A stretch of 64,000 nucleotides of DNA, from assembly GCA_017439965.1 (NCBI GenBank), contig JAFSID010000079.1:2035-66034 (forward strand). The letters are read 5' to 3'. Positions 5,368 to 26,975 of the stretch are shown piece after piece. The translations under genes were made by a program, and so were the position numbers. This DNA is from Clostridia bacterium (GTDB taxonomy: Bacteria; Bacillota; Clostridia; Oscillospirales; SIG627). The notes under the pieces were generated by a model. The model was not told the origin of the DNA. It worked only from the letters and a program-made list of their open reading frames with translations, and made no database searches. Every line of letters begins with the position of its first letter. The stretch's first letter is position 1.

Positions 5368-6453
5368 ATGAATTTTGTTTCTTACATAATGGTTGTCTTT
5401 TCGCTTATTGCGGCAATTGACAGAATATTCGGTAGCAGATTCGGACTGGGCAAGGAGTTTGATAAGGGCTTTATGCTTCTTGGTACGATGTCACTTTCGA
5501 TGATTGGTATGATTGTAATATCTCCGCTGCTTGCCGATCTTTTGAACCCACTTTTTGAAACGGTTTACAACGTATTTGGAGTTGACCCGTCGGTAATTCC
5601 CGCAATATTTTTCGCCAACGATATGGGTGCCGCTCCGTTGTGTGTTGAGGTTGCCAAGGACGCTTCGGTCGGTAGATTCAATGCACTTGTTGTCTCGTCA
5701 ATGATGGGAGCAACGGTTTCATATACGATACCGTTTGCCCTCGGAATTGTTAAAAATAACGTAAAAGAGCTTATGGTCGGAATTCTATGCGGTATCGTTA
5801 CCGTGCCCGTTGGCTGCTTTGTGTCAGGGCTTATGCTTTCAATCCCTCTCTCAACGCTTATAATCAACGTTTTACCGCTTATAATTTTTTCGGTAGTAAT
5901 AGCGCTCGGGCTTTTGTATATACCCGATATATGCGTTAAGATATTCAAGGGCATTGCATATTTTATCAAGGCTCTTATCACGGTTGGACTTGCGCTTGGA
6001 ATATTACGTTTCCTTATAGGAGTGGAGCTTGTCAAAGGGCTTGAAACTATTGAAAACGGAGCAATGGTCTGCTTTAACGCTTCAATCGTTATGAGCGGTG
6101 CATTTCCGCTTATGTATATCATTTCCCGTTTGCTTGATAAACCTCTGTCTGCATTCGCTTCAAAAGTAGGCATCAATAAAACCTCTGCAGTCGGACTTGT
6201 TTCAAACCTCGCAACAAACGCCACTACCTTTCAGATGATGAACGATATGGACTCGAAGGGCGCAATGGTCAATTCCGCATTTGCAGTTTCGGCAGCATTT
6301 ACCTTTGCGGGACACCTTGCATTTACAATGGCATTTGACGATTCGTATATATTGTACGTTATCGTCGGAAAGCTTATTTCCGGTGTTTGCTCGTTGATTG
6401 TTTCATTCCCGATATATAACAGAATATTCAAAAAAAATAACGCTACGGTTTGA
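5368..6453 (+). CDS. eutH: EutH-like (ethanolamine utilisation protein EutH family) permease
   Basis: 361-aa polytopic membrane protein. The N-terminus ...LIAAIDRIFGSRFGLGKEFDKGFMLLGTMSLSMIGM... parallels E. coli EutH (LIAAVDRI...FEEGFMAMG). Recognised from memory only. Confidence 0.65.
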   Translation: MNFVSYIMVVFSLIAAIDRIFGSRFGLGKEFDKGFMLLGTMSLSMIGMIVISPLLADLLNPLFETVYNVFGVDPSVIPAIFFANDMGAAPLCVEVAKDASVGRFNALVVSSMMGATVSYTIPFALGIVKNNVKELMVGILCGIVTVPVGCFVSGLMLSIPLSTLIINVLPLIIFSVVIALGLLYIPDICVKIFKGIAYFIKALITVGLALGILRFLIGVELVKGLETIENGAMVCFNASIVMSGAFPLMYIISRLLDKPLSAFASKVGINKTSAVGLVSNLATNATTFQMMNDMDSKGAMVNSAFAVSAAFTFAGHLAFTMAFDDSYILYVIVGKLISGVCSLIVSFPIYNRIFKKNNATV

Positions 6454-6469
6454 CCGTAGCGTTATTTTT
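6431..6469. terminator. bidirectional intrinsic terminator
   Basis: AAATAACGCTACGG-tttga-CCGTAGCGTTATTT with an A-run upstream and a T-run downstream. It lies between convergent genes, and the eutH stop codon sits in the loop. Confidence 0.75.
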
Positions 6470-6471
6470 AA

Positions 6472-9400
6472 TCAGTTAGTAATTTCGCCACCCGAGAATC
6501 CGAGGACAATTCTTGCACGAATTGGTGCATTGGTTGTGGCTGATGCAGTATAAGTACCGTTGAAGCTTCCGCTTGGTATTTCAAGGCTTCCGCTGATGCT
6601 TGATACCTCGGTGATGGTTTGATCTGCGTGATGCACGTGTGCTTTGCGGGTTGCAGGATCAAACTCAAGGTATTCACTACCCTTTAGTGTCGTGTTGAAG
6701 GTTATCGAGTTGTTACCAACGGTAACGGTAGGATTCTTAACCTCTGCTTCAACCTGCTTGTAAGCGTAGATTGAGCTTATCTGCGCATTTTTTGCGGTTT
6801 CACCGCAGGTACGGATTGTGATGTTTTCAATGTAATTGTACAGAGGAACGACACGGTAGGTTGAATATTGCATTCCTGAGGTCTTAACACCGTCAAATAC
6901 GTACTTGTGGAAATCATAATCACCGTTGTCGGCATCTACGATTACCATTTCACGCCAGCCCTCGAAGTTGAGGTCGATGAAGTGGTCGATTCTACCGCCC
7001 GTCTCACCCGAAACTACACCGCCGAGAAGAGATATCAGGAGTGCGTCTCCGTCACGACCCGTGCCCTTTACCTTGAACTTGTAAACCATATTTTCAAGAA
7101 GGTTAAGACCGATAGACTGTGTAAGCTTCTGCTCGGAGAGAGGCGTATTTTCGTCGAAGGTTGCAAGAAGCAGCTCGTTTTCGGAAAGGGTAGACCATCT
7201 GCCCTCAATACGAATATACGGCTCTTGAGTCTTGAAGGGGTTGTTTCCGTTGAATGCGGTGTTATCCTTCCAGTTACCTACGTTGCTCTTTGCATAGTAC
7301 ATTTCGAGGAAGGCGTATTCACCGGGAGCCTTTTCGATAATCTTGAATTCGCCGCCCTTGTCAATCTTGTCCATAACCTTCTGTCTTGTAGCCTCGGTGA
7401 AATATCCCGACTTGCGAATGCGACTGTAAAATTCGTAATATTTCATATTTGCATACATTTCGGGATTTGCATCTATTTCCTTGGGGTCAAAGCTTCCGTA
7501 AACGTTTGACATATTGTAAGCGACCGCTGTTGAGCCGATATAGTCAAGGTCATCCTCGAACATAGTCTTGTGGAGGGTGTTTCTCATACCTCCCATAGGT
7601 GCGGAGTCAGGGAAGAATGCCGTCCATCCGAGAGTGGATACCATATTGCTTCGTTCACTTTCAAGGTTTATGAGTCTATGCTCGTTAATAAACGCCTTGA
7701 TACCTCTGGTTGCAGTATCCCACGCTCCGACTCGTCCTCTTACGTTCCAGGTTTGAGGTGCACTCGATGAAAACTCGATGATTGGGTCGTTATTGCACTG
7801 TGAGAGAATTCTGTGAATGAACATTTGGAAATAGTAGTAATGGTCCGTCGTATAAGCGGTTGCACCGTCGTGCTTGTTAAGACCGTCAATAGCGTCGATG
7901 TAGAGCATCTTGAATCTGCCGTCGTTGTAGGTCTGTGCGGTAAGGTCGGCAATGTGATAGAAAAGCTCCGAGCCAATCTTGGGAGCAAATCTATTGAAGT
8001 ATCCCGAAAGGTGATAAATCTTCGTGCCGTCTTGGTGCTTCTGTGGCTTTGTACCGCATTGTGCGCGCTTACACTTGATAAATCCGTCGGGAGTACCTGC
8101 ACCTACAAGTATGATCTCGTCATCTATCATAATATAACGGCTGTTTCGGTAGAAGAAGGATTTCGTCATATCAAAGCCTGACGCATCCTCGTTGGTCTTG
8201 ATGCTTTCCTTAGTCTTTGTAAGATTGCCTCTGAGAGTGTATACGTCGGGCATTGTTTCAAGCTGCCTTGTCCACTTGGGGTTGGCAAGTATTCCTACGG
8301 CATCGTAATCAATATAGAATGCGTAGGTGTGAAGACTGAGAATTATTCCGTTTTCCTCGGCAAGCTTACCGACGGTGTCTCCAAATTCCTTTGCTGTACC
8401 CGTTTCAAGAGATGCAAAGTAATAGTCACCGGGACGGTAGCCCTGAGGACCGAAAAGAATATCAATCTGGTCAATGTCAAACTCCTTGGCATACTTTACA
8501 ACGTTCACCATATTGTCGTAGGTCGCGTCGTAAAGCATTGCATAGTCACCCGAAACGTCGGCGTTAACACGGCTGAAAGGACCGCCTGTTACGTTGGCAA
8601 GACCCTTTGAACGATCAATGGTGTTGGAAAGCTTTTGCAGACACTCAGCGTTTTCAGCGTAGGTGGAAAGTGCAAAGCCGTGCTTTGAGCCGATGGTGCC
8701 CCAATCGTACTTTGTGAGCACGGTTGCGTAGGATGAGTTGGAAGCACCCATACCGCTCATATGTGTAAGCACGTTTGCCGTCATTGCCATTGAGCCGAGA
8801 CGGTAGGATTCGGGAGTGAAAAGCATTTCAAGATTTGTTGACAGATTTGCAAAGGTTACACTTTCGTAGGTCTTGGGTACAGAGGAATCAAGCTCGAATG
8901 CCATAAAGTCATCGTGAACGTAGGCAAGCATATAAATGACGTCTCCCGTCTTGAAGGTCACCTTGATTCTGTTTCCTTCAAGCGTGATGCTTGTGGGGGA
9001 TACCTTGGCACCGCCCGAGAGAGACAGATAAATAAATTGAGGATTTTTGGTTTCTGTATTTACGTCCTGACCGTTTTCAAGGTTAATGATTTCCGTAACC
9101 TTACCGTTTTTCTTGTTGACCGAGAGCTTCATTCTCTTGTTCTTGAAAATAAGATTTGCACCCTCATCGGATACACCGTCAAGTGTTGCGGTATAGGAGT
9201 TTTTCGTTGATACGTTGGAGTTGGATGCCATAAGGATGTTTAACTTTGCCCAGTGTGTGCCAATGTCAACAAAGGTGTTTTCAAGCTTGTCTGCAAGCAC
9301 TGTCTCGTCATTTACAACAAGGTTAAGAAGTCTGTTAACAACTGTTACAACCTCTGCTCTCGTTATTGTGTTATCGGGACGGAAGGTGGCATCCTCATAG

Positions 9401-10929
9401 CCGTTTACAAGACCCGAGCTTGCCGCCGCGATAATTGAATTGTAGTAGAAGTGATTCTTCGGTACGTCTGCAAATTCTATAATCTCGTCACTCTCTGCAA
9501 GGTTTGAGGCAAGATATGCAAGCTCAACGAATTCCGCTCTCGTTATAGGCTCGTTAGGCTTATAAGTGGTGTTCTTGTTGCGGAAGAAGAAGCCGCACTG
9601 GTCGAGGTATGCAACAGCATTGTAGAACCAGTCGCCCATCTTGACGTCTTCAAAGCGCGTCACGTATCCGTCGGGAATGGTCTGTGTATTGAGGAGGAGT
9701 CTTGCAAAAATCGTACAAGCCTCGGCCCTCGTCATATTAGCGTTAGGACGGAAGGTGTTGCCCTCATATCCGAGGATGTAGGACTTGTTTGCGCCGTTTT
9801 GCTGAAGAGCGATAGTGGGAAGTCCGTCAACGGTCGTAGGCTCGGTAAGTGTGCCGATGCTGTCGAGGGTCACCGATACCTCACTTGAATCAATATATCC
9901 GAGGGTGGGGGAGAAGTATCTGAAGCTTAAGGTCTTGTTATCCTCGGAAACCTTGGTCATCAGCATAAAGGGACCTTCCTTTTGGTCGATTCCCGCGCTG
10001 CTTGCCATAATTGCCGCCGTGTTATAGCCTGCTTCATTCGTGAGCTTTTTTGTTAAAATAGTATTTACGGGCGTTGCGTTCGTGGAGATGATTGCAAGGA
10101 TGTTGTTGTGCTTTGAAAATGCGTATTGCCACATAGCCTCACCGTCGCGTGGCTTGTCTATGTTTGATATAGTGTAGCCCTTCAGACGCGAGGTGCCGAC
10201 GAGCTTGATACCGCCTTCATTCCAGTCCCACATCGTGTACATCTCGCCCGAAGGGTCAAGGAAGGAGGGGGTATAAACGATAGCGTACTTGTCGGTGTGA
10301 TTAGAAAGCGTTTCATTAAACCAATCGAGCACCGACTGTCTCGGACATACTTCAAGCTGAAATACAATGTATTTAATATCATTGTTTTTGATTACCGTAT
10401 AGTAGTTGGCATCGTCGTATTTTGAATAGACGGTATCCTCGTGAAAGATATCGGCAGGAGCAAAGTAGGTTGATATACTGCTGTCACGACCTCTTGCAGA
10501 GCCGTTGCCGTAGTACTCAACGATGTCGTAGCCGAAACCGTAAGGAATTGCCGTATCGGTCAAAAGCTCGGTCATAGACTGAATACTGTTCCACTCTGCA
10601 TTCCATTCCTTATCGTTCTGGTGAAGCAGAATAAGGTCGTCCATAGTCTTTCCGCCGTTCGTTATTACGTCCTTGTAGGTATGCTTGGAAAGATTGGTAA
10701 GCCTTCCGAGGAAGGAAACGTATTTGATATTGTATTCGTCGGCATTCTCTACAATTGTGTATATTGCCTCCTCAAAGCGTTCTGTACCAACGTGCTTGTA
10801 GAGAGTGTGGAAGCTTGTCAAAAGAAATTCGTTGTCCTTTGCCCAGTCCTCCGTATTTGCCGATACACCGAGAGATAACGCCGTTATCATCACAAGCGTT
10901 AAAATAAGCGCGGTTAATATTTTTTTCAT
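6472..10929 (-). CDS. very large secreted cell-surface protein with three internal SLH repeats (paralog A)
   Basis: 1485 aa. Signal peptide MKKILTALILTLVMITALSLGVSA. Three SLH-type repeats lie mid-protein (YILGYEGNTFRPNANMTRAEACTIFARLL; FEDVKMGDWFYNAVAYL...ITRAEFVELAY; FADVPKNHFYYNSIIAAASSGLVNGYEDATFRPDNTITRAEVVTVVNRLL), encoded around 9320-9785. The ~350-aa N-terminal and ~900-aa C-terminal regions are not recognised. Confidence 0.85.
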   Translation of the reverse strand: MKKILTALILTLVMITALSLGVSANTEDWAKDNEFLLTSFHTLYKHVGTERFEEAIYTIVENADEYNIKYVSFLGRLTNLSKHTYKDVITNGGKTMDDLILLHQNDKEWNAEWNSIQSMTELLTDTAIPYGFGYDIVEYYGNGSARGRDSSISTYFAPADIFHEDTVYSKYDDANYYTVIKNNDIKYIVFQLEVCPRQSVLDWFNETLSNHTDKYAIVYTPSFLDPSGEMYTMWDWNEGGIKLVGTSRLKGYTISNIDKPRDGEAMWQYAFSKHNNILAIISTNATPVNTILTKKLTNEAGYNTAAIMASSAGIDQKEGPFMLMTKVSEDNKTLSFRYFSPTLGYIDSSEVSVTLDSIGTLTEPTTVDGLPTIALQQNGANKSYILGYEGNTFRPNANMTRAEACTIFARLLLNTQTIPDGYVTRFEDVKMGDWFYNAVAYLDQCGFFFRNKNTTYKPNEPITRAEFVELAYLASNLAESDEIIEFADVPKNHFYYNSIIAAASSGLVNGYEDATFRPDNTITRAEVVTVVNRLLNLVVNDETVLADKLENTFVDIGTHWAKLNILMASNSNVSTKNSYTATLDGVSDEGANLIFKNKRMKLSVNKKNGKVTEIINLENGQDVNTETKNPQFIYLSLSGGAKVSPTSITLEGNRIKVTFKTGDVIYMLAYVHDDFMAFELDSSVPKTYESVTFANLSTNLEMLFTPESYRLGSMAMTANVLTHMSGMGASNSSYATVLTKYDWGTIGSKHGFALSTYAENAECLQKLSNTIDRSKGLANVTGGPFSRVNADVSGDYAMLYDATYDNMVNVVKYAKEFDIDQIDILFGPQGYRPGDYYFASLETGTAKEFGDTVGKLAEENGIILSLHTYAFYIDYDAVGILANPKWTRQLETMPDVYTLRGNLTKTKESIKTNEDASGFDMTKSFFYRNSRYIMIDDEIILVGAGTPDGFIKCKRAQCGTKPQKHQDGTKIYHLSGYFNRFAPKIGSELFYHIADLTAQTYNDGRFKMLYIDAIDGLNKHDGATAYTTDHYYYFQMFIHRILSQCNNDPIIEFSSSAPQTWNVRGRVGAWDTATRGIKAFINEHRLINLESERSNMVSTLGWTAFFPDSAPMGGMRNTLHKTMFEDDLDYIGSTAVAYNMSNVYGSFDPKEIDANPEMYANMKYYEFYSRIRKSGYFTEATRQKVMDKIDKGGEFKIIEKAPGEYAFLEMYYAKSNVGNWKDNTAFNGNNPFKTQEPYIRIEGRWSTLSENELLLATFDENTPLSEQKLTQSIGLNLLENMVYKFKVKGTGRDGDALLISLLGGVVSGETGGRIDHFIDLNFEGWREMVIVDADNGDYDFHKYVFDGVKTSGMQYSTYRVVPLYNYIENITIRTCGETAKNAQISSIYAYKQVEAEVKNPTVTVGNNSITFNTTLKGSEYLEFDPATRKAHVHHADQTITEVSSISGSLEIPSGSFNGTYTASATTNAPIRARIVLGFSGGEITN

Positions 10930-10962
10930 CGTTTCCTCCTGAAAATATAAATATTCAATTAT

Positions 10963-10991
10963 ATTATACTTCCTGTATCAACGCTTGTCAA
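10963..10991 (-). promoter_or_regulatory. consensus sigma-A promoter of SLH paralog A
   Basis: Reverse strand reads TTGACA (10986-10991), 17 nt, TATAAT (10963-10968). AGGAGG RBS precedes the ATG at 10929. Confidence 0.65.
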
Positions 10992-11057
10992 TTAAATATC
11001 AACTGAATAATGGGAGATACAAACTGTTATTTTAGATATGATTTTCCTGTATCTTAC

Positions 11058-11100
11058 AAAAAAGTGGCTGTAAAAAGCTCAGTCAGAGCTTTTTACAGCC
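11058..11100 (-). terminator. intrinsic terminator of SLH paralog B
   Basis: Perfect 15-bp stem GGCTGTAAAAAGCTC / GAGCTTTTTACAGCC (11066-11100). On the reverse strand it is followed by TTTTTT (plus A-run 11058-11063). Confidence 0.8.
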
Positions 11101-11111
11101 AATAAAAGCAA

Positions 11112-14100
11112 TCAGTTTGTAATTTCAATTCCGGAGAAGCCGAAGACAACCTTTGCACGAACGGGTGCATCAGTCTCTGCGGTTGCGGTGTACGTACCGT
11201 TGAAGCTTCCTGTGGGTATCTCAAGCTTACCCGAATAGGTGATTTCGGTCACACTTTGGTCAGCCTTGGTAAGATACGCCTTGCGTGTTACGGGATCGAA
11301 CTCGATAAAGTCACTTCCTTGAAGTGTTGCGTTAAAGGTGATTGAGGAATTACCAACGGTAATGGTGGGATTCTTGACGGGCGCTTCTGTCTGTAAGTAG
11401 CCCTTGATAGGAGTGATATAAGCGTTGCCCGCGGTTGCACCGCAAAGTCTTACGGTTACCTTGTTGATATGCTTGTAACCGGGGACGGTACGGTAGGTTG
11501 AATACTGCATACCCGTTGTGTTGATGCCGTCAAAGGTGTACTTGTCGGTATCGTATTCGGCGTTGTCTGAGTCAAGAATTACGAAGTCACGCCAGCCCGT
11601 GAAGTTGAGGTCGATAAAGTGGTCGATACGTCCGCCCGACTCACCTGCGGTAAGCGCACCTGTGAGTGAAATGAGCATTGCGTCTCCTTCGTTGCCCGTA
11701 CCCTTGACCTTGAACTTCATAACCATATTATTATCCATCTTAACTGAGGTAACACGACCAAGAGTCTGATTTGAGAGAGGCTTGTCCTCCTCAAAGCCCG
11801 AGATTACAACCTCGTTTTCGGAGAGGGTTGACCAACGTCCTTCGATTCGGATAAAGGGCTCCTGAGTCTTGAAGGGGTTCTTGCCCGTGAAGGAGGTGTC
11901 GTTGAGTACGTTACCTACGTTGTACTTGCTGTAATACATTTCAAGAAATGCGTACTCGCCCTTGGATTTCTCAATTATTTTGAATTCTCCACCGTGGTCA
12001 ATAACCTTCTGCTTTGCCTCAGCAGTAAAGTACTCGGATTTACGGATTGTGTTGTAATATGCGTAGTATTCAAGGTTGCTCTGATACTGAGGATTTTTGT
12101 CTACCGACGACGCATTAAAGGAGTAGAGAACGTTACCCATATTATAGAGTACCGCAAGAGTACCCATATAATCGATGTCGTCACGGAAGAGGGTCTTTTC
12201 GATTGTGTTTCTCATACCCGAGGTCGCAGAGGAGTCGGGGAAGAAGTGGAACCAACCGATGTTAGTTGTGAAGTTGTACTGCGCATCTCTGAGGTTTACG
12301 TCAAGGTGTGCCTTAACGAACTGCTTATAGCCACGAGTGGGAGTATCCCAAGCGCCCATTCGTCCTCTTACGTTCCACATCTGCGGAGCGGAAGCCGAGA
12401 ACTCAATGATCGGGTCGTCGTGACAGCCCTGAAGTATTCTCTGGGTGTAGGTCTGATAATAATATTTGGTATCGTTTGCGTTGTTGGTATGATGACCGAT
12501 ACCGTCGATAGCGTCAAGATAAATCATCGAGAAGCCACCGTCGTTGTAGGTCTGCGCCGTAAGGTCTGCCATATGGTAGAAAAGCTCAGAGCCCATAACG
12601 GGTGAGAATCTTGAGAAGTATCCCGAGAGGTGATATATCTTCGTACCGTCTGTGTGCTTCTGCGGTTTTGTACCGCACTGCGCACGCTTAACGTTGATAA
12701 AGCCCTCCGTCGTACCCTGACCGACGTAAATGATTTCCTCGTCAATCAGAATGTAACGGCTGTTTTTATAGAAGAAGGTCTCGGTAGTATCAAAATTCGT
12801 TGCATCCTCGTTGGTCTTGATGTTTACCTTCGTCTTTGTAAGGTTACCTCTGAGAGTGTATACGTCGGGCATTCTTTCAAGCTGTTGCTGCCACTTGGGA
12901 TTTGCGGTAATGCCCGTTGCATTGTAGTCGATGTAGTAAGCGTAAACGTGGAGACCGAGAAGGATTCCGTTGTCCTCTGCAAGCTTACCAATCGTCTGAC
13001 CGAATTCCTTTGCTGTGCCGTTAGGCATAGTGGGGAAGTAGAAGTCACCCTGACGGAAGGAGCTTGTATTGTTGTGGTGAATATCGATCTGGTTGATATT
13101 GAACTGCTTTGCCTTTTCGATAACCGCCTTCATATTCTCTTCGGTAGCGTTGGTGATAAGGATATAGTCACCCGCGGTGTCCTTATTGAGATAGGTGAAG
13201 GGACCGCCCGTCGTGTTAGCAAGACCTTTCTTGCGGTCGATTGCGTTTGCAACGAGTCTGAGGCAGTCGTCATTTTCCTCAAGCGTTGAAAGTGCAAAGC
13301 CGTGCTTAGAGCCAATCGTACCTGCCGCGTACTTCGTATAAACGGTAGCGTAGGTGGAGTTAGAGTAGCCCATACCCTTGTCAACGGTAAACACGTTAGC
13401 CGTCATAGCCATCGTACCGAGACGGTAGGAGTCGGGATCGGTAAGCATTTCAAGGCTTGTTGAAAGGTTGGCAAAGGTGATGCTTTCGTAGGATACAGGC
13501 ACCTGAGAATCAAGCTCAAACGCCATATAGTCGTCGTGAATGTCGGCTATAAGATATACGACGTCACCCGATTTGAAGGTAACCTTTATTCTGTTGCCCT
13601 CAATAACCATTTCCCTGGGAACTGACTTCGTTCCACCCGGATTGGAAAGATAAACGAACTGAGGGTTCTTCGTATCACCCTTAATGCTCTGTCCGTTGGC
13701 AAGGTTGATGATATCGTCAACCTGACCGTTTCTCTTGTTAACGGTAATCTTTATTCTCTTATTCTGGAAAACGATGTTGTTACCGGCCTCGGAAACACCG
13801 TTGAGGGTAGCCGAGTAGGAGCTTTTCGTTGATACGTTGGAGTTTGCCGCCATAAGTACGTTGAGCCTTGCCCAGTGGGAGCCGATATCAACGAAATTGT
13901 TTTCAAGCTTTTCGGGAATAACTGTATCTGCGGATACTGCGAGGTTTAAAAGACGGTTGATAACCGTTACGACCTCGGCACGCGTGATAGTATTGTCGGG
14001 ACGGAAGGTATTGTCCTCATATCCGTTTACAAGACTTGTTGAGGCTGCCGCAACGATTGAATTATAATAGAAGTGATCCTTGGGAACGTCGGTGAAGGAA

Positions 14101-15554
14101 ACCGTTGCGGTGCCCTCTCCGAGATTTGAGGCGAGGTACGCAAGGTCAACGAATTCAGCTCTCGTTATAGGCTGATTGGGCTTGTAGACGGTATTCTTGT
14201 TGCGGAAGAAGAAACCGCTCTGGTCAAGGTATGCTACCGCATTGTAGAACCAATCTCCCGCTTTAACGTCCTCAAAGCGAGTAACGTATCCGTCGGGAAT
14301 GGTCTGAGTGCCGAGAAGGAGTCTTGCAAAAATCGTACAAGCCTCAGCTCTCGTCATATTTGCGTTAGGACGGAAGGTGTTACCCTCGTAGCCTAAAATG
14401 TACGCGCTGTTAGTACCGTTGGGCTGACGGGTGATAGTGGGAAGACCGTCAATGGTAAGAGGCTCGGTAAGAGCTGCAATTTTATCAAGCGTTACCGTAA
14501 CCTCACTGTCTGCAACGTAGCCTGTTTCGGGCGCAAAGAAGCGGAAGGAAAGAGTCTTGTTATCCTCCGAAATTTTCGTCATAACCGTAAAGGGACCCGT
14601 TGCCTTGTCAATGACCGAGGTGTTAGCCTGAACGGAAACCGTTTCATAGCCATTGGGATTTGTAAGCTTTTTGACGTTGATCTTGGGGCTTGCAATGTTA
14701 GAGGAAGAGAAAACCGCAAGAATGTTATCGTGCTTTGAGAATGCGTATTCCCAAAGGGCTTCACCGTCACGTGGCTGACCGACGTGTGCAAGAGATACAC
14801 CTGCCACACGTGAGGTTTTACCCTTGATGTCTATGCCACCCTTAGACCAATCCCACATAGTGTAAAGCTCACCGCTCGGCTGCATAAACGAGGGTGTGTA
14901 TACTATTGCGTACTTGTCGGTGTGCTTTGCAAGGGTATCGTTAAACCAGTCAAGCACTGCTTCTCTCGGGAATATTTCGAGCTGGAAGATTATGTATTTC
15001 GTACCGTTGTTTGAAATGATTGAATAGTAGTTTGCATCGTCGTATGCCGAGAAAATAACTCCCTCGGGAAAGATTTCAATCGGCTGGAAGTAAACGAACT
15101 GACTGCTGTCTCTCTGACGTGCGGTACCGTTGGAGTAAATATCCGATACGTCGTAGCCCAGACCGTAGGGAATACCCATATCGGTCAAGAGTTCCGTCAT
15201 ATTCTTGAGAGCCTGCCACTGAGCGTTCCATTCCGCATCGTTCTGATGGAGTGTTACAAGCTCGTCAACCGACTTCTTCTGCTCGGTAACAACTGAACGG
15301 TAGGTATGTACGGAGGGTCTTGTGAGCTTTCCGAGGAAGGATATATACTTGATATTATACGCCTCTGCATTCTCACCGAGCGTATAAATTGCCTCCTCAA
15401 AGCTGGGCTTGTCTACGTGGTTGTCAAGGGTATGGAAGCTTGCGAGTATGAACTCGTTGTCCTTTGCCCAATCCTCCTTTGCAGCAAACGCATATACGCC
15501 AAGCGTTGCCACCAAAAGAACTGCAACCAGAAGTGACGTGAAAATTCTTTTCAT
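11112..15554 (-). CDS. very large secreted cell-surface protein with three internal SLH repeats (paralog B)
   Basis: 1480 aa, collinear with paralog A along its whole length and roughly two-thirds identical by eye. Signal peptide MKRIFTSLLVAVLLVATLGVYAFA. The SLH triplet is encoded around 13930-14400. Confidence 0.85.
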   Translation of the reverse strand: MKRIFTSLLVAVLLVATLGVYAFAAKEDWAKDNEFILASFHTLDNHVDKPSFEEAIYTLGENAEAYNIKYISFLGKLTRPSVHTYRSVVTEQKKSVDELVTLHQNDAEWNAQWQALKNMTELLTDMGIPYGLGYDVSDIYSNGTARQRDSSQFVYFQPIEIFPEGVIFSAYDDANYYSIISNNGTKYIIFQLEIFPREAVLDWFNDTLAKHTDKYAIVYTPSFMQPSGELYTMWDWSKGGIDIKGKTSRVAGVSLAHVGQPRDGEALWEYAFSKHDNILAVFSSSNIASPKINVKKLTNPNGYETVSVQANTSVIDKATGPFTVMTKISEDNKTLSFRFFAPETGYVADSEVTVTLDKIAALTEPLTIDGLPTITRQPNGTNSAYILGYEGNTFRPNANMTRAEACTIFARLLLGTQTIPDGYVTRFEDVKAGDWFYNAVAYLDQSGFFFRNKNTVYKPNQPITRAEFVDLAYLASNLGEGTATVSFTDVPKDHFYYNSIVAAASTSLVNGYEDNTFRPDNTITRAEVVTVINRLLNLAVSADTVIPEKLENNFVDIGSHWARLNVLMAANSNVSTKSSYSATLNGVSEAGNNIVFQNKRIKITVNKRNGQVDDIINLANGQSIKGDTKNPQFVYLSNPGGTKSVPREMVIEGNRIKVTFKSGDVVYLIADIHDDYMAFELDSQVPVSYESITFANLSTSLEMLTDPDSYRLGTMAMTANVFTVDKGMGYSNSTYATVYTKYAAGTIGSKHGFALSTLEENDDCLRLVANAIDRKKGLANTTGGPFTYLNKDTAGDYILITNATEENMKAVIEKAKQFNINQIDIHHNNTSSFRQGDFYFPTMPNGTAKEFGQTIGKLAEDNGILLGLHVYAYYIDYNATGITANPKWQQQLERMPDVYTLRGNLTKTKVNIKTNEDATNFDTTETFFYKNSRYILIDEEIIYVGQGTTEGFINVKRAQCGTKPQKHTDGTKIYHLSGYFSRFSPVMGSELFYHMADLTAQTYNDGGFSMIYLDAIDGIGHHTNNANDTKYYYQTYTQRILQGCHDDPIIEFSASAPQMWNVRGRMGAWDTPTRGYKQFVKAHLDVNLRDAQYNFTTNIGWFHFFPDSSATSGMRNTIEKTLFRDDIDYMGTLAVLYNMGNVLYSFNASSVDKNPQYQSNLEYYAYYNTIRKSEYFTAEAKQKVIDHGGEFKIIEKSKGEYAFLEMYYSKYNVGNVLNDTSFTGKNPFKTQEPFIRIEGRWSTLSENEVVISGFEEDKPLSNQTLGRVTSVKMDNNMVMKFKVKGTGNEGDAMLISLTGALTAGESGGRIDHFIDLNFTGWRDFVILDSDNAEYDTDKYTFDGINTTGMQYSTYRTVPGYKHINKVTVRLCGATAGNAYITPIKGYLQTEAPVKNPTITVGNSSITFNATLQGSDFIEFDPVTRKAYLTKADQSVTEITYSGKLEIPTGSFNGTYTATAETDAPVRAKVVFGFSGIEITN

Positions 15555-15595: not shown

Positions 15596-15624
15596 ATTAT
15601 ACGGCTTATAAAAAACATTGTCAA
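15596..15624 (-). promoter_or_regulatory. consensus sigma-A promoter of SLH paralog B
   Basis: Reverse strand reads TTGACA (15619-15624), 17 nt, TATAAT (15596-15601). AAGGAG RBS precedes the ATG at 15554. Confidence 0.65.
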
Positions 15625-15663: not shown

Positions 15664-16518
15664 TTAAAAGGTAACTGTACGGGTCTTTGTCTGTCTCTCG
15701 TTGGGTAAAAGAGTCATAATGGCAGCCTTTTCGGTAATATCCGAGCCTGCGTCAAAGTAGTCGGAAAGTCCGCACCAGGGCTCAAGACAGATGAATTTTG
15801 CGCCTACCTTCGTCCATATCATAAAGTAGTCGAAGCCGTCAAATCCGATTTCGATAGTGTCGCCCGTATCTCTGTTTTTAAGCCACGCCTTTCTTGACTT
15901 GAGATTCAAGAATGCAAGAGTGTCAAGCTCAAAGAATTCCTCCTTAAGCTGAAGCTCGGTGGTATTTTTTCCAAAATTCATAAGCTCGTGACCGAGCACG
16001 GGACCGACGAGAAGATTTGAGTCAAGGTCCTCGGGCTGCTCAAAAATAACGCTGTATGAATTAACTCCCTCGGGACAGCTGTACGCATCGTGTCCGCCGA
16101 GAGAATAGTACATATTTTCCTCTCCCGTGTTCTTGGTGTCGTATGTAATCGAGAGCGTTGAGCCGTTTATAGAATACTTTACTCTGAACTCAAAGTGGAA
16201 GGGATAGCACTTGAGTGTCTCCTCGCTTGAGCGGAGAAGGAAGGTTGCCGAGGTCTCGGTCTTTTCTTCAACCTCAAAGAGACTCGTACGGGCAAAGCCG
16301 TGACGGGTGAGGGAATAGCTTTCTCCCTTGTAGGTGTAGGTGTCGTTGTTGAGTCCTCCGCAAATCGGGAAGAGAGTAGGCGCGTGCTTTGCCCAAACCT
16401 CTGGGTCTGCCTGCCATATCTTTTCAACCCCGTTCTTTATAACGCTTGTCATTTCAGCGCCGAGAGAGGTGACTGATACCTTGATTATTCCGTTTGATAA
16501 TACTACTTGCTCTGCCAT
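15664..16518 (-). CDS. aldose 1-epimerase family protein (LacX/galactose mutarotase-like)
   Basis: 284 aa. Motifs LFPICGGL, YSLTRHGFAR and a later GGHDAY-type segment are typical of the small aldose-epimerase family. Confidence 0.75.
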   Translation of the reverse strand: MAEQVVLSNGIIKVSVTSLGAEMTSVIKNGVEKIWQADPEVWAKHAPTLFPICGGLNNDTYTYKGESYSLTRHGFARTSLFEVEEKTETSATFLLRSSEETLKCYPFHFEFRVKYSINGSTLSITYDTKNTGEENMYYSLGGHDAYSCPEGVNSYSVIFEQPEDLDSNLLVGPVLGHELMNFGKNTTELQLKEEFFELDTLAFLNLKSRKAWLKNRDTGDTIEIGFDGFDYFMIWTKVGAKFICLEPWCGLSDYFDAGSDITEKAAIMTLLPNERQTKTRTVTF

Positions 16519-16726: not shown

Positions 16727-17518
16727 ATGCTGTCCTTTGATTATTTACATATAAACAGTTGTGGGTATCAAGACCTATACGGTATTGATACGGGTAGCTT
16801 CCGTCCGAGAGGCAGAGCAGATTATCATTTGCTTTATATTACCGAGGGTGTTTGCTTTGTCAATTTTAACGGAAAAATCGTTGAGGTAAAAGCGGGCTGC
16901 ATTTTACTTTTTCTGCCGTATGAAATTCAGGATTACCGTTTTAAAGCCGAAATACGCTCACGCTCATATTACATCCATTTTGACGGAGCGGTATGTCCTG
17001 AGCTTTTTAACGATTTTACCGAGAGGCTTTATTACGTCGGTAAGAACAATCATCTTGAAGCCCTCTTTAGCTCTATGACCGAGGAATACCGTGTGAAGCT
17101 CTTGGCATGGGAATCGGCTTGTCAAGGGTATCTGCTCAATATTATTTCTGCCGTTAAGCGTGAGATAAATATGATAACCTCAAAAACGGGCGAGGCATCC
17201 TGTGATATGATTTCAAGAATATGCAGGGAAATGCACTCAAGCTACGCTAAAAACGTCTCCGTTCCCGAGTACGCCTCAATGTGTAATCTAAGCGAAAGCC
17301 GTTTTTCTCATTTGTTTAAAATCAATACGGGCGTCAGTCCCGTAAGATATATTCTCAATATCCGTATTGAAAAGGCTTGTGACCTGCTCGAAAATACCGA
17401 TTTGTCAATTGCCTCTATATCAGAGCTTACGGGTATGCAGAGTCAACACTATTTAAGCCGTATCTTTAAAAAGTATATCGGTATGTCACCAAGCGATTAC
17501 CGTAAAAAATTTCAGTAA
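16727..17518 (+). CDS. AraC family transcriptional regulator
   Basis: 263 aa. N-terminal cupin-like sensor domain and a C-terminal double HTH (...SESRFSHLFKINTGVSPVRYILNIRIEKACDLLENTDLSIASISELTGMQSQHYLSRIFKKYIGMSPSDYRK). Confidence 0.85.
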   Translation: MLSFDYLHINSCGYQDLYGIDTGSFRPRGRADYHLLYITEGVCFVNFNGKIVEVKAGCILLFLPYEIQDYRFKAEIRSRSYYIHFDGAVCPELFNDFTERLYYVGKNNHLEALFSSMTEEYRVKLLAWESACQGYLLNIISAVKREINMITSKTGEASCDMISRICREMHSSYAKNVSVPEYASMCNLSESRFSHLFKINTGVSPVRYILNIRIEKACDLLENTDLSIASISELTGMQSQHYLSRIFKKYIGMSPSDYRKKFQ

Positions 17519-24683: not shown

Positions 24684-25811
24684 ATGGCACAGGATAAGAA
24701 AAACAGCCCATCCACCTCGGAAAAAGACAACGTTAATGAATTGGCCGAAAAACTCAAAAAGAAGGGTACAGTTACAAGCGACGAGCTTCTTGACGTAATT
24801 GAGTCAACGGGCTTGTCGGATGAAGAAACCGAAAGACTTTACGCAAGACTTGATGCACTCGGAGTCGAGGTGACCATCGTTGCCGACCTTATCGACGATA
24901 TGCCCGACCCCGACGAGCTTGAGGAGGAGATTGCAACCTACGATACTCCCGAGGAGATGGAGAGTCTTCTGACGGGAGAGGGACTTCCCATTGAGGACCA
25001 CGTTAAGATGTACCTCAAGGATATAGGACGCGTTAAGCTTCTTTCAAGCGATGAGGAGGTAGAGATTGCCAAGAGGATTGCCGAGGGGGATACCGAGGCA
25101 AGAAATCTTCTCGTTGAGGCAAATCTGCGACTCGTCGTAAGCATCGCCAAAAGATATATAGGACGCGGTATGGGCTTTCTTGATTTGATTCAGGAGGGCA
25201 ACGCAGGTCTTATAAAGGCGGTGGAAAAATTCGATTATACCAAGGGATATAAGTTTTCAACCTATGCGACCTGGTGGATAAGACAGGCTATAACCCGTGC
25301 TCTTGCCGACCAGTCGCGTACCATAAGAATACCCGTACATATGGTTGAGACAATGCACTAGATACAGAGATTTTCACGACAGATACTTCAGGAAAAGGGA
25401 CACGATGCCTCTCCCGAGGAAATAGCCGAGCTTTCGGGTATGCCTCTTGACAAGGTGCGTGAAATACTCCAGATGGCTCAGGAGCCCATTTCCATCGACA
25501 GCCCCGTGGGTGAGGACGATGAGAGCAGTATCGGTGAGTTTATCGCCGACGAGGCTTCTCCCGAGCCTGACGAGATAGTCGGTGAGACAATGCTCCACGA
25601 GCAGCTCTGTGAGGTCTTAAAAACACTCACTCCGCGTGAGGAAAGCGTAATTAAAATGCGATTCGGACTTGACGACGGCGTTCAGAGGACTCTTGAGGAG
25701 GTTGGACGTGAGTTCAATATTACCCGTGAGAGAATCCGTCAGATAGAGGCAAAGGCTCTCCGCAAGCTCCGTCATCCGACGCGCATTTCAAAATTTAAAG
25801 GATTCAGATAA
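24684..25811 (+). pseudogene. sigma-70 (RpoD/SigA-like) paralog interrupted by one in-frame TAG at 25359-25361
   Basis: Track ORFs 24684-25361 and 25440-25811 are in the same frame (offset 756 nt). The sequence between them also translates cleanly (IQRFSRQILQEKGHDASPEEIAELSG). TAG replaces the Lys codon seen in the downstream paralog ([10 protein letters not shown] versus VETMH*IQRF). Regions 1.2-4.2 are otherwise intact. Confidence 0.8.
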
Positions 25812-25841: not shown

Positions 25842-26975
25842 ATGGCAAACACTAACGAAGAAATGAAACAGGACGCACTTTTTTCAAAGCCCGAGATAGT
25901 TGAGCTTTTGAAAAAAGTAAAACAGAAAAGCTCACTCAATTCTGATGAGATATCCGAGCTGATATTATCACTTGACGTTGAGCTTGACGCCGACCAGTAC
26001 GAAAAGCTTTACGATAAGCTTGAGGCGATAGGCGTCGGTCTGGCGGGTAATTTCGCTGACAACGACGAAATGAGCGAGATTGAGGCAGAGGTGGAAAGCT
26101 TCGGCACTCCCGAGGAAATGGAAAACGCTCTTGCAATAGAGGGTCTTGCCATTGAGGACCACGTGAGAATGTACCTCAAGGAGATTGGTAAGGTACCCCT
26201 TCTTACCGCCGAGAGAGAGGCGGAGCTTGCTCAGAGAATAAGAGAGGGCGACGATTATGCGAAGCAGCAGCTCGTCGAGGCAAACCTCAGACTCGTTGTA
26301 AGCATTGCGAAAAGATATATGGGACGAGGACTTTTCTTCCTCGACCTCATTCAAGAGGGTAACCTCGGTCTTATGAAGGCGGCAGATAAGTTCGACTTCG
26401 AAAAGGGCTATAAATTTTCAACCTACGCAACCTGGTGGATAAGGCAGGCGGTAACCCGTGCAATTGCCGACCAGGCGCGTACCATAAGAATCCCCGTTCA
26501 TATGGTGGAGACCATACACAAGGTGCAGAGAGTATCCCGACAGATACTTCAGGAGAGAGGACACGATGCCTCGGCTGAGGAAATTGCCGAGATGATAAAT
26601 ATGCCTATTGATAAGGTGCGTGACATTCTCAAGGCTGCTCAGGAGCCCGTATCACTTGAAACTCCCATAGGTGAGGAGGAGGACAGCCACCTCGGAGACT
26701 TCATTCCCGACGACGAAGCGCCCGCTCCTGCGGATGCCGCAAGCTATACTCTTCTCCGTGAACAGCTTGCCGAGGTGCTTCACACTCTCACTCCGCGTGA
26801 GGAGAGCGTATTGAAGCTCCGCTTTGGACTTGAGGACGGACAGATGAGGACTCTTGAGGAGGTAGGCAAGGAATTTAATATTACTCGAGAAAGGATTAGA
26901 CAGATAGAGGCAAAGGCTCTCCGCAAGCTTCGTCATCCCAGCCGCTCAAAGAAGCTTCGTGACTATCTGGATTGA
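25842..26975 (+). CDS. rpoD: RNA polymerase primary-type sigma-70 factor
   Basis: 377 aa. Region 2 is [35 protein letters not shown]. Region 3 is present. Region 4.2 is [29 protein letters not shown]. Confidence 0.9.

Follow-up and report, generated by a model that had tools for sequence, protein, structure and literature searches.

What do two very large surface proteins do when most of their length matches no described family by sequence? The question is raised by a pair of adjacent genes in a 64,000-nt stretch of DNA from a Clostridia bacterium (contig JAFSID010000079.1; the whole stretch is called the window below, and its features are numbered along it). The genes encode the paralogs P0001 and P0002, each with a signal peptide, an N-terminal domain, three SLH repeats in the middle and a C module of ~900 aa. 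A first-pass annotation, made from the sequence alone, had found both flanking regions unassignable, and this was confirmed, with no Pfam, NCBIfam or PDB sequence match for either. We conclude that the proteins are probably glycan-active enzymes, most likely retaining glycosidases. They would be secreted and held on the wall by the central SLH triplet, which would bind pyruvylated secondary cell-wall polymer. Catalysis would reside in the C module, whose build resembles that of the alpha-galactosidase superfamily (clan GH-D with GH36, GH27 and GH31, and in addition GH129, GH101 and GH97).

The C module (P0001 aa 585-1485) was modelled by AlphaFold2 (AF2) with an alignment of 36 copies of the family, and the model reached a mean predicted local distance difference test score (pLDDT) of 91.9 and a predicted template modelling score (pTM) of 0.89. 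In module numbering, a beta-sandwich (1-172) is followed by a (beta/alpha)8 barrel (~205-606) and this by three beta modules (610-901). After barrel strand 3 there is a beta-rich insert of ~95 residues (P0001 aa ~890-985) holding the invariant E938, R955 and H965. A Foldseek search of the model against PDB listed 50 matches, 49 of them to GH36, GH129, GH101, GH31, GH97 or GH27 glycosidases and one to a GH13 amylosucrase, with a probability of 1.00 throughout, a best E of 7e-11 and 7-11% identity. The best matches were GH36 enzymes (3MI6 at 7e-11, TmGalA, 2XN0 and 9AWT; E 7e-11 to 5e-10), and GH129 (5OPQ, 8RZK) and GH101 (EngBF) were matched at E 3e-10 to 1e-8. The AF2 model and these matches agree with the first-pass annotation, which had seen in this region a TIM barrel followed by beta-sandwich modules and had suggested a glycan-active or adhesive surface enzyme. 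Sub-threshold matches to the TIM-barrel family AP_endonuc_2 also appeared in Pfam scans of family proteins, and a fold search of a viral structure library gave only weak beta-sandwich noise.

The conservation pattern of the C module points to an active site. Residues invariant in 36 of 36 copies include H283, Y285, E354, R371, H381, D428, D431, E468, R482, D487, H500 and W518 (module numbering). Among 148 diverse relatives, one representative per 50%-identity cluster, E354 and R371 were kept in all 148, H381 and D428 in 147, D487 in 146, and H500 and W518 in 144 each. According to DSSP of the model, D428 (P0001 D1012, P0002 D1014) ends barrel strand 424-427 and D487 (P0001 D1071, P0002 D1070) follows strand 480-483. 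We take the places after strands 4 and 6 to be where clan GH-D has its nucleophile and its acid/base, respectively. The module would then be a retaining glycosidase with D1012 as nucleophile at the end of strand 4 and D1071 as acid/base after strand 6; as a specific catalytic pair this is a tentative proposal, given slightly less than an even chance. The invariant Glu, Arg and His of the strand-3 insert probably shape the substrate pocket. The same insert (7975-8260 on the minus strand) carries the motif IDDEI...R.QCGT...H..G and showed a recurrent, sub-significant resemblance to phage-type proteins, namely Rcc01698_C in distant relatives (E 0.005) and the phage tip-attachment J protein 8RK3 (E 0.85).

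The alpha-galactosidase superfamily contains transglycosylases and lyases, and the same fold might here serve other chemistry, that of a transglycosylase, an alpha-glucan-lyase-like eliminase or a phosphorylase. The GH31 transglucosylase Agd31B is among the listed Foldseek matches, and the invariant Arg, His and Glu of the insert could bind phosphate, sulfate or carboxylate. However, most of the matched structures are hydrolases, the two conserved Asp fit the standard retaining pair and nothing specific speaks for a non-hydrolytic reaction. We regard this as improbable, and as the weightiest of three alternatives, followed by a non-catalytic surface coat and then by action on envelope polymers.

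When compared with known glycosidases, the C module shares with GH36 alpha-galactosidases and alpha-galactosaminidase (Lactobacillus brevis 3MI6, L. acidophilus 2XN0, Thermotoga maritima TmGalA 1ZY9/5M0X and Flavonifractor plautii 9AWT) the order beta-sandwich, barrel, beta-sandwich, and it has conserved Asp at the putatively corresponding places after barrel strands 4 and 6. Unlike GH36, it is 8-11% identical to these enzymes, has no Melibiase/GH36 Pfam match, and bears the ~95-aa beta insert with its own invariant E/R/H and two extra C-terminal beta modules, and in P0001 and P0002 it is joined to an SLH anchor and a pseudo-phosphoesterase domain. The fold match extends to GH129 (Zobellia ZgGH129 5OPQ/8RZK; NagBb type) and GH101 (endo-alpha-N-acetylgalactosaminidase EngBF), which are surface enzymes of gut and marine bacteria and, like P0001 and P0002, large and built of several modules. 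In contrast to the fold, no sequence relation to these families was found by Pfam or hhalign. GH101 and GH129 use Asp and Glu, whereas both strongly conserved candidates here are Asp.

The N-terminal domain (~340 aa) was modelled by AF2 over aa 25-379 from an alignment of 39 sequences (17 copies from the own genome and 22 from other metagenome-assembled genomes, MAGs), with a pLDDT of 90 and a pTM of 0.90. Foldseek matched it to purple acid phosphatase (2.8e-9) and Lmo2642 (5.4e-9), and further to SMPDL3A, GAP50, Mre11, LpxH and the inactive B subunits of DNA polymerases, the whole range being 3e-9 to 7e-4. The domain has no Pfam match at E<=1, PF00149 (Metallophos) included. No His is invariant or at least 90% conserved in the 39 sequences, so the ligands DxH, GNH, H and GHxH cannot be conserved; the strand ends read SFNG, SFLG, G-x-S, T-x-S and ISS where DxH, GDxxD, GNH[DE], H and GHxH belong. 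A metallophosphoesterase fold without its metal ligands had been called by eye in the first-pass annotation, and the model, the Foldseek matches and the missing conserved His bear this out. On the evidence of the alignment, the dimetal site is lost and the domain is a predicted pseudo-enzyme. Its own invariant set comprises R148, E193, W203, D213, WDW at 234-236 (motif MYTMWDW), D262 and PRDGE. Within the own genome the domain is confined to the 17 SLH forms of the family; its profile returned only truncated copies of the same SLH proteins from 5.8 billion proteins, and phmmer of the N part (aa 1-381) matched no PDB chain. In having no dimetal ligands it is like GAP50 (Plasmodium, 3TGH) and the B subunits of polymerases delta and zeta, and it shares the fold of active purple acid phosphatases (5UQ6; Foldseek E 3e-9). 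Unlike all of these, to which it has no sequence relation, it occurs only in the SLH architecture. It is probably a binding or scaffold domain, not a phosphatase.

The anchor between the two modules is clear. Pfam (PF00395) found three SLH repeats in each protein (E 6.9e-30 and 2.7e-29; scores of 103 and 101 bits, the cut-off being 20.8), at about aa 383-570, in agreement with the earlier reading of a mid-protein triplet at about aa 385-560. Besides SLH, Pfam gave nothing on P0001 and P0002 at E<=1, and NCBIfam gave nothing beyond the SLH part. SLH anchoring requires polysaccharide pyruvyl transferase. In the own assembly a PF04230 (polysaccharide pyruvyl transferase) match of 125.7 bits was found on contig C73, which answers the csaB check proposed in the first-pass annotation at the level of a PF04230 match, not of CsaB orthology. 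The gene (337-2541 of the extracted locus) encodes a 735-aa GT4 glycosyltransferase-pyruvyltransferase fusion and is followed by an Amidase_3-SH3 gene; such a fusion fits the attachment of SLH proteins to a polymer that carries pyruvate. Mean identity among the 17 SLH forms is 76% in the SLH part, 42% in the N domain and 47-56% in parts of the C module. Third positions of four-fold codons are 0.50 identical in the SLH part versus 0.42-0.45 elsewhere, near saturation throughout, and no two copies have an exact DNA match longer than 71 nt in common. Gene conversion as the source of the SLH conservation was ruled out on these two grounds. Since the SLH part keeps 76% identity despite nearly saturated synonymous sites, its conservation indicates purifying selection on one shared ligand. 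Like SLH-anchored glycoside hydrolases (GHs) of Firmicutes, P0001 and P0002 are secreted, putatively catalytic modules tied to the wall by three SLH repeats. In the SLH-anchored GHs of thermophilic and cellulolytic Firmicutes (e.g. xylanases and pullulanases) the triplet is terminal, whereas here it is central, beside a dead phosphoesterase domain, in an unclassified catalytic family with 17 anchored copies. As with the SLH and dockerin alternatives of cellulosomal organisms, the same genome holds a dockerin-bearing sibling.

The pair had been noticed as an isolated curiosity, which did not hold. When the C module was searched in the own assembly (2.44 Mb, 106 contigs), 38 open reading frame (ORF) pieces were obtained, which were curated to about 37 genes occupying 130,965 nt, or 5.4% of the assembly. 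Seventeen copies are full-length, with signal peptide, N domain, SLH triplet and C module. Another 16 are intact leaderless forms of 857-903 aa, which have no signal peptide and start at the module boundary. The remaining four are a leaderless copy with a single in-frame TAG (contig C62:413-3088), which may be a pseudogene or reflect a sequencing error; a copy cut by the end of contig C61; a variant with signal peptide, SLH and a partly duplicated C module (contig C90:10026-13679); and a 1449-aa protein on contig C63 with signal peptide, C module, three Big_3 domains and a type I dockerin. The C90 variant (1217 aa) has its SLH triplet at the N-terminus, and the profile matches its C module in two stretches that overlap (48-388 and 264-899), pointing to duplication of part of the module or to a rearrangement within it. 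Tandem arrays hold most family genes (seven on C13, five on C16, and three each on C46, C77, C94 and C62). The count is a lower bound, as arrays reach contig ends (C16, C46, C77, C94, C95, C9, C62 and C61), and because so many do, the true copy number is probably higher.

In a tree with 70 database homologues, each paralog of the own genome stood beside its own orthologues from other MAGs. The near-saturated four-fold sites and exact DNA matches of at most 71 nt likewise mark the paralogs as old, as judged from their sequences. Old and individually conserved paralogs would imply many linkage specificities. Leaderless copies that start at the module boundary argue for an autonomous enzyme and not for a structural protein of the wall. 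Work would be divided between two compartments, the 17 SLH forms cleaving glycans at the cell surface and the 16 leaderless forms of ~880 aa finishing the imported fragments in the cytoplasm.

P0001 and P0002 align collinearly from end to end (65% identity, 80% positives and 9 gaps in 1487 columns). Exactly two 12/12 promoter-like sites (TTGACA-17-TATAAT) were found in the 10.6 kb scanned, one per paralog and each 60-70 nt upstream of its start codon. The ATG codons are preceded by the ribosome-binding sites AGGAGG and AAGGAG, and both N-termini are of Sec type, as judged by eye (MKKILTALILTLVMITALSLGVSA for P0001 and MKRIFTSLLVAVLLVATLGVYAFA for P0002). The ORFs, the alignment and the consensus scan therefore reproduced the first-pass picture of two collinear paralogs, each with a perfect promoter, a ribosome-binding site and a signal peptide, and a terminator with a 16-bp stem was found between them as described. 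The further claim that they are independent units of high-expression type stands at motif level, for the separate promoters and terminators. For most of the SLH-form copies in the genome, a separate terminator hairpin was found together with a promoter-like site that scores 8-11/12, and 12/12 was reached only in P0001 and P0002. An invertible promoter, and with it phase variation, was ruled out, since the intergenic regions of the pair measure only 182 and 109 bp, are occupied by terminator and promoter, and leave no space for one.

These observations bear on a second alternative, in which the proteins form a variable structural coat (S-layer or S-layer-associated, without catalysis) and the 17 SLH paralogs are a repertoire of antigens or phage receptors from which the window pair is expressed. 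The monocistronic build of the 17 paralogs, each with its promoter-like site and terminator, would suit this, as would the restriction of perfect promoters to P0001 and P0002, the divergence of the N and C parts (42-56% identity) around a conserved anchor, and an N domain that, as in the structural protein GAP50, has the fold of an enzyme but is dead. However, the putative active-site residues are invariant in 36/36 copies and in ~99% of 148 distant relatives in other phyla, and the 16 leaderless, presumably cytoplasmic copies cannot be a surface coat. In addition, the paralogs are old, with 1:1 orthologs across MAGs and no rapid turnover or gene conversion, and the short intergenic regions rule out promoter inversion. 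We consider a coat to be improbable as well, second in weight among the alternatives.

The neighbours of the leaderless arrays count in favour of the glycosidase reading. The seven-gene leaderless array on C13 has two DUF4838 paralogs ahead of it and faces a GH39-like gene, galK and galT, the C62 array adjoins another DUF4838 gene, and the C67 copy adjoins a GtaA-like six-hairpin protein. A second galK-like gene is present in the own genome, and in the same-genus genome G010 only a GH39-like neighbour was found at the leaderless array. Several results weigh against a glycosidase. The global TM-scores of the C-module Foldseek matches are only 0.26-0.44, although modest values are expected with multi-domain proteins. 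The profile of the 36 C-module copies matched none of the PDB chains, no Pfam or NCBIfam match to Melibiase, Glyco_hydro_31 or related profiles was obtained for the C module, and hhalign gave probabilities of 0.3% against the own-genome GH36 on contig C26 and 0.2% against the 963-aa GH129-like protein of the window. D1012 and D1071 are candidates assigned by secondary structure and conservation. The galK/galT/DUF4838 synteny with leaderless arrays was not found in G003, the one other genome of the genus in which the flanks of the array were readable, and the contexts of the other SLH forms are heterogeneous (alpha/beta-hydrolase, DUF1015, DHHW, WYL and GH28-like genes). The overall gene context is carbohydrate-flavoured and singles out no substrate. 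As the synteny is missing in G003 and G010 showed only the GH39-like neighbour, the link to galactose is weak. In addition, phmmer of the C part (aa 571-1485) matched no PDB chain, and Pfam and NCBIfam scans of both proteins, of divergent paralogs and of distant relatives returned only SLH, Big_3, dockerin and accessory modules.

Within the genus the family is carried by 15 of 16 genomes, with 3 to at least 22 scored matches and up to 45 first-look candidates. One of nine genomes from other genera of the same taxonomic family gave a weak match (1e-11), 16 other families of the order gave none, and 400 genomes spread evenly over the phylum (278 genera) gave 0 matches at 1e-10 with two candidates per genome scored. 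Copy number seems to track genome size, from 0-16 in genomes of 1.2-1.7 Mb to 16 to at least 22 (up to 45 candidates) in those of 2.4-2.6 Mb, and the family may account for some of the size variation among genomes of the genus. Carrier MAGs came from water-buffalo caecum and from sheep and roe-deer rectum, with others labelled uncultured Oscillospiraceae or Eubacteriales; near-identical DNA occurs in gut, pig-gut, manure and faeces metagenomes.

An exhaustive profile search of 1.84 billion cluster representatives found 1,785 clusters at E<=1e-3, a number that falls to 945 at 1e-10 and to 472 at 1e-30. Distant clusters match profile positions 1-660 only, that is, the sandwich and the barrel, and the three C-terminal beta modules are specific to the gut-Clostridia branch. 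The named distant relatives are each a "hypothetical protein" of Planctomycetes, Verrucomicrobia, Lentisphaerae/Victivallales, Acidobacteria, Armatimonadetes, Chloroflexi or Hydrogenedentes. In the sources, relatives are named only in this way or as "SLH domain-containing", and a literature search on related terms returned nothing pertinent to the family, so that the earlier statement of a family without a characterised member stands. Some distant relatives are fused to CBM11, Laminin_G_3, an SGNH esterase or a glycerophosphodiester phosphodiesterase (GDPD), partners typical of carbohydrate-active enzymes, which we count, together with the Big_3 domains and dockerin of the C63 copy, in favour of an enzyme.

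The GDPD domain, fused in one distant subfamily, is also the starting point of the third alternative, in which the enzymes act on bacterial envelope glycopolymers (teichoic acids, secondary wall polymers or capsules), either to remodel the own wall or to scavenge other gut bacteria, with the N domain reading phospho-glycans. An N domain derived from a phosphoesterase fold and anchorage of the proteins to the wall by SLH would accord with this, many paralogs would suit the diversity of microbial glycans, and there is a weak likeness between the barrel insert and a motif in the tail-tip proteins of phages and gene transfer agents (GTA). However, all these links are indirect, the phage-motif matches are not significant and the viral fold search gave nothing. 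The CBM11 fusions and the GH39 and galK/galT neighbours point instead to dietary or host glycans. Its probability is low, and the lowest of the three.

The features of the pair and of its surroundings are collected in Table 1.

Table 1. Positions of the gene pair, its parts and the adjacent genes in the window.
Feature	Position	Strand	Remarks
Paralog 1 (P0001)	6472..10929	-	1485 aa: signal peptide, pseudo-phosphoesterase domain, SLH x3, GH-D-like module
P0001 promoter-like site	10963..10991	-	TTGACA-17-TATAAT, 12/12; consensus scan
P0001 signal peptide, Sec-type, aa 1-24	10858..10929	-	read by eye
P0001 N domain, aa 25-365	9835..10857	-	metallophosphoesterase fold without metal ligands
P0001 SLH triplet, aa ~383-570	9220..9783	-	TRAE motif in each repeat; Pfam
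P0001 C module, N-terminal beta-sandwich, aa 585-757	8659..9177	-	AF2 model
P0001 C module, (beta/alpha)8 barrel, aa ~790-1190	7360..8562	-	AF2 model
P0001 codon of D1012	7894..7896	-	end of barrel strand 4; candidate nucleophile
P0001 codon of D1071	7717..7719	-	after barrel strand 6; candidate acid/base
P0001 C module, three C-terminal beta modules, aa 1191-1485	6475..7359	-	
Terminator-like hairpin and T-run	6430..6469	-	directly after P0001 stop; faces converging EutH gene
Paralog 2 (P0002)	11112..15554	-	1480 aa; architecture as P0001
P0002 promoter-like site	15596..15624	-	TTGACA-17-TATAAT, 12/12; consensus scan
P0002 N domain, aa 25-366	14457..15482	-	
P0002 SLH triplet, aa ~384-571	13842..14405	-	
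P0002 C module, aa 586-1480	11115..13799	-	candidate catalytic D1014 and D1070
P0002 intrinsic terminator	11065..11101	-	16-bp stem and T-run, between the two genes
Aldose 1-epimerase family gene	15664..16518	-	directly upstream of the pair; own transcription unit
AraC-type regulator	16727..17518	+	divergent

Some further observations were made around the family genes. The dockerin-bearing member lies in a cluster of genes for large surface proteins (contig C63:1-17800), together with a 1792-aa protein with Big_3 and dockerin, a 913-aa BspA-LRR protein with five Big_3 domains, a 964-aa protein without Pfam match and an SLH protein; the dockerins would imply a cohesin partner. Three leaderless paralogs of ~640 aa stand beside the arrays at C13:25953-29822 and C62:8910-10856, two of them weakly matching DUF4838, and possibly represent another unstudied enzyme family that acts together with the 37-gene family. 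An ORF that looks by eye like a fragment of a large serine recombinase flanks the seven-gene array at C13:5451-6632. Elsewhere in the window, a 225-aa ORF with only sigma-70 regions 1.1, 1.2 and 2 (24684-25361, plus strand) immediately precedes the gene of a complete 377-aa RpoD-like sigma factor (25842-26975, plus strand), which could reflect either a partial duplication or the splitting of a sigma gene.

In conclusion, the folds and the SLH anchor are of kinds already known. What is new is a sequence family for which Pfam and NCBIfam hold no model and PDB no structure, its classification in CAZy being left aside; an architecture that joins a dead phosphoesterase domain, a central SLH triplet and a GH-like module; and an extreme expansion restricted to one genus. 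The combination of a central SLH triplet with a pseudo-phosphoesterase illustrates cleanly how a dead enzyme fold can be put to new use on the bacterial surface. A fuller account, which taken as a whole we hold to be somewhat unlikely, would have the C module found a new GH family of more than 1,700 50%-identity clusters, which entered one genus of ruminant-hindgut Clostridia, possibly by horizontal transfer, and radiated there to at least 37 paralogs (>5% of the genome) with distinct specificities, both wall-anchored and cytoplasmic, while a dead phosphoesterase fold was recruited as a binder of glycans or phosphoglycans. If this is true, the genus would be a specialist whose niche is defined by one enzyme family. 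The devotion of 5% of a 2.4-Mb genome to one family suggests that it is central to how the genus lives in the hindgut of ruminants and pigs, and it is probably a major unstudied carbohydrate-degrading toolkit. Annotation by Pfam and NCBIfam sees only "SLH domain" in the SLH forms, and dbCAN is expected to miss the family too. If its substrates were found, the family would count as an additional GH family, whose relatives extend to Planctomycetes, Verrucomicrobia, Lentisphaerae, Acidobacteria and Armatimonadetes, and it could explain a glycan-degradation step that is absent from gut models.

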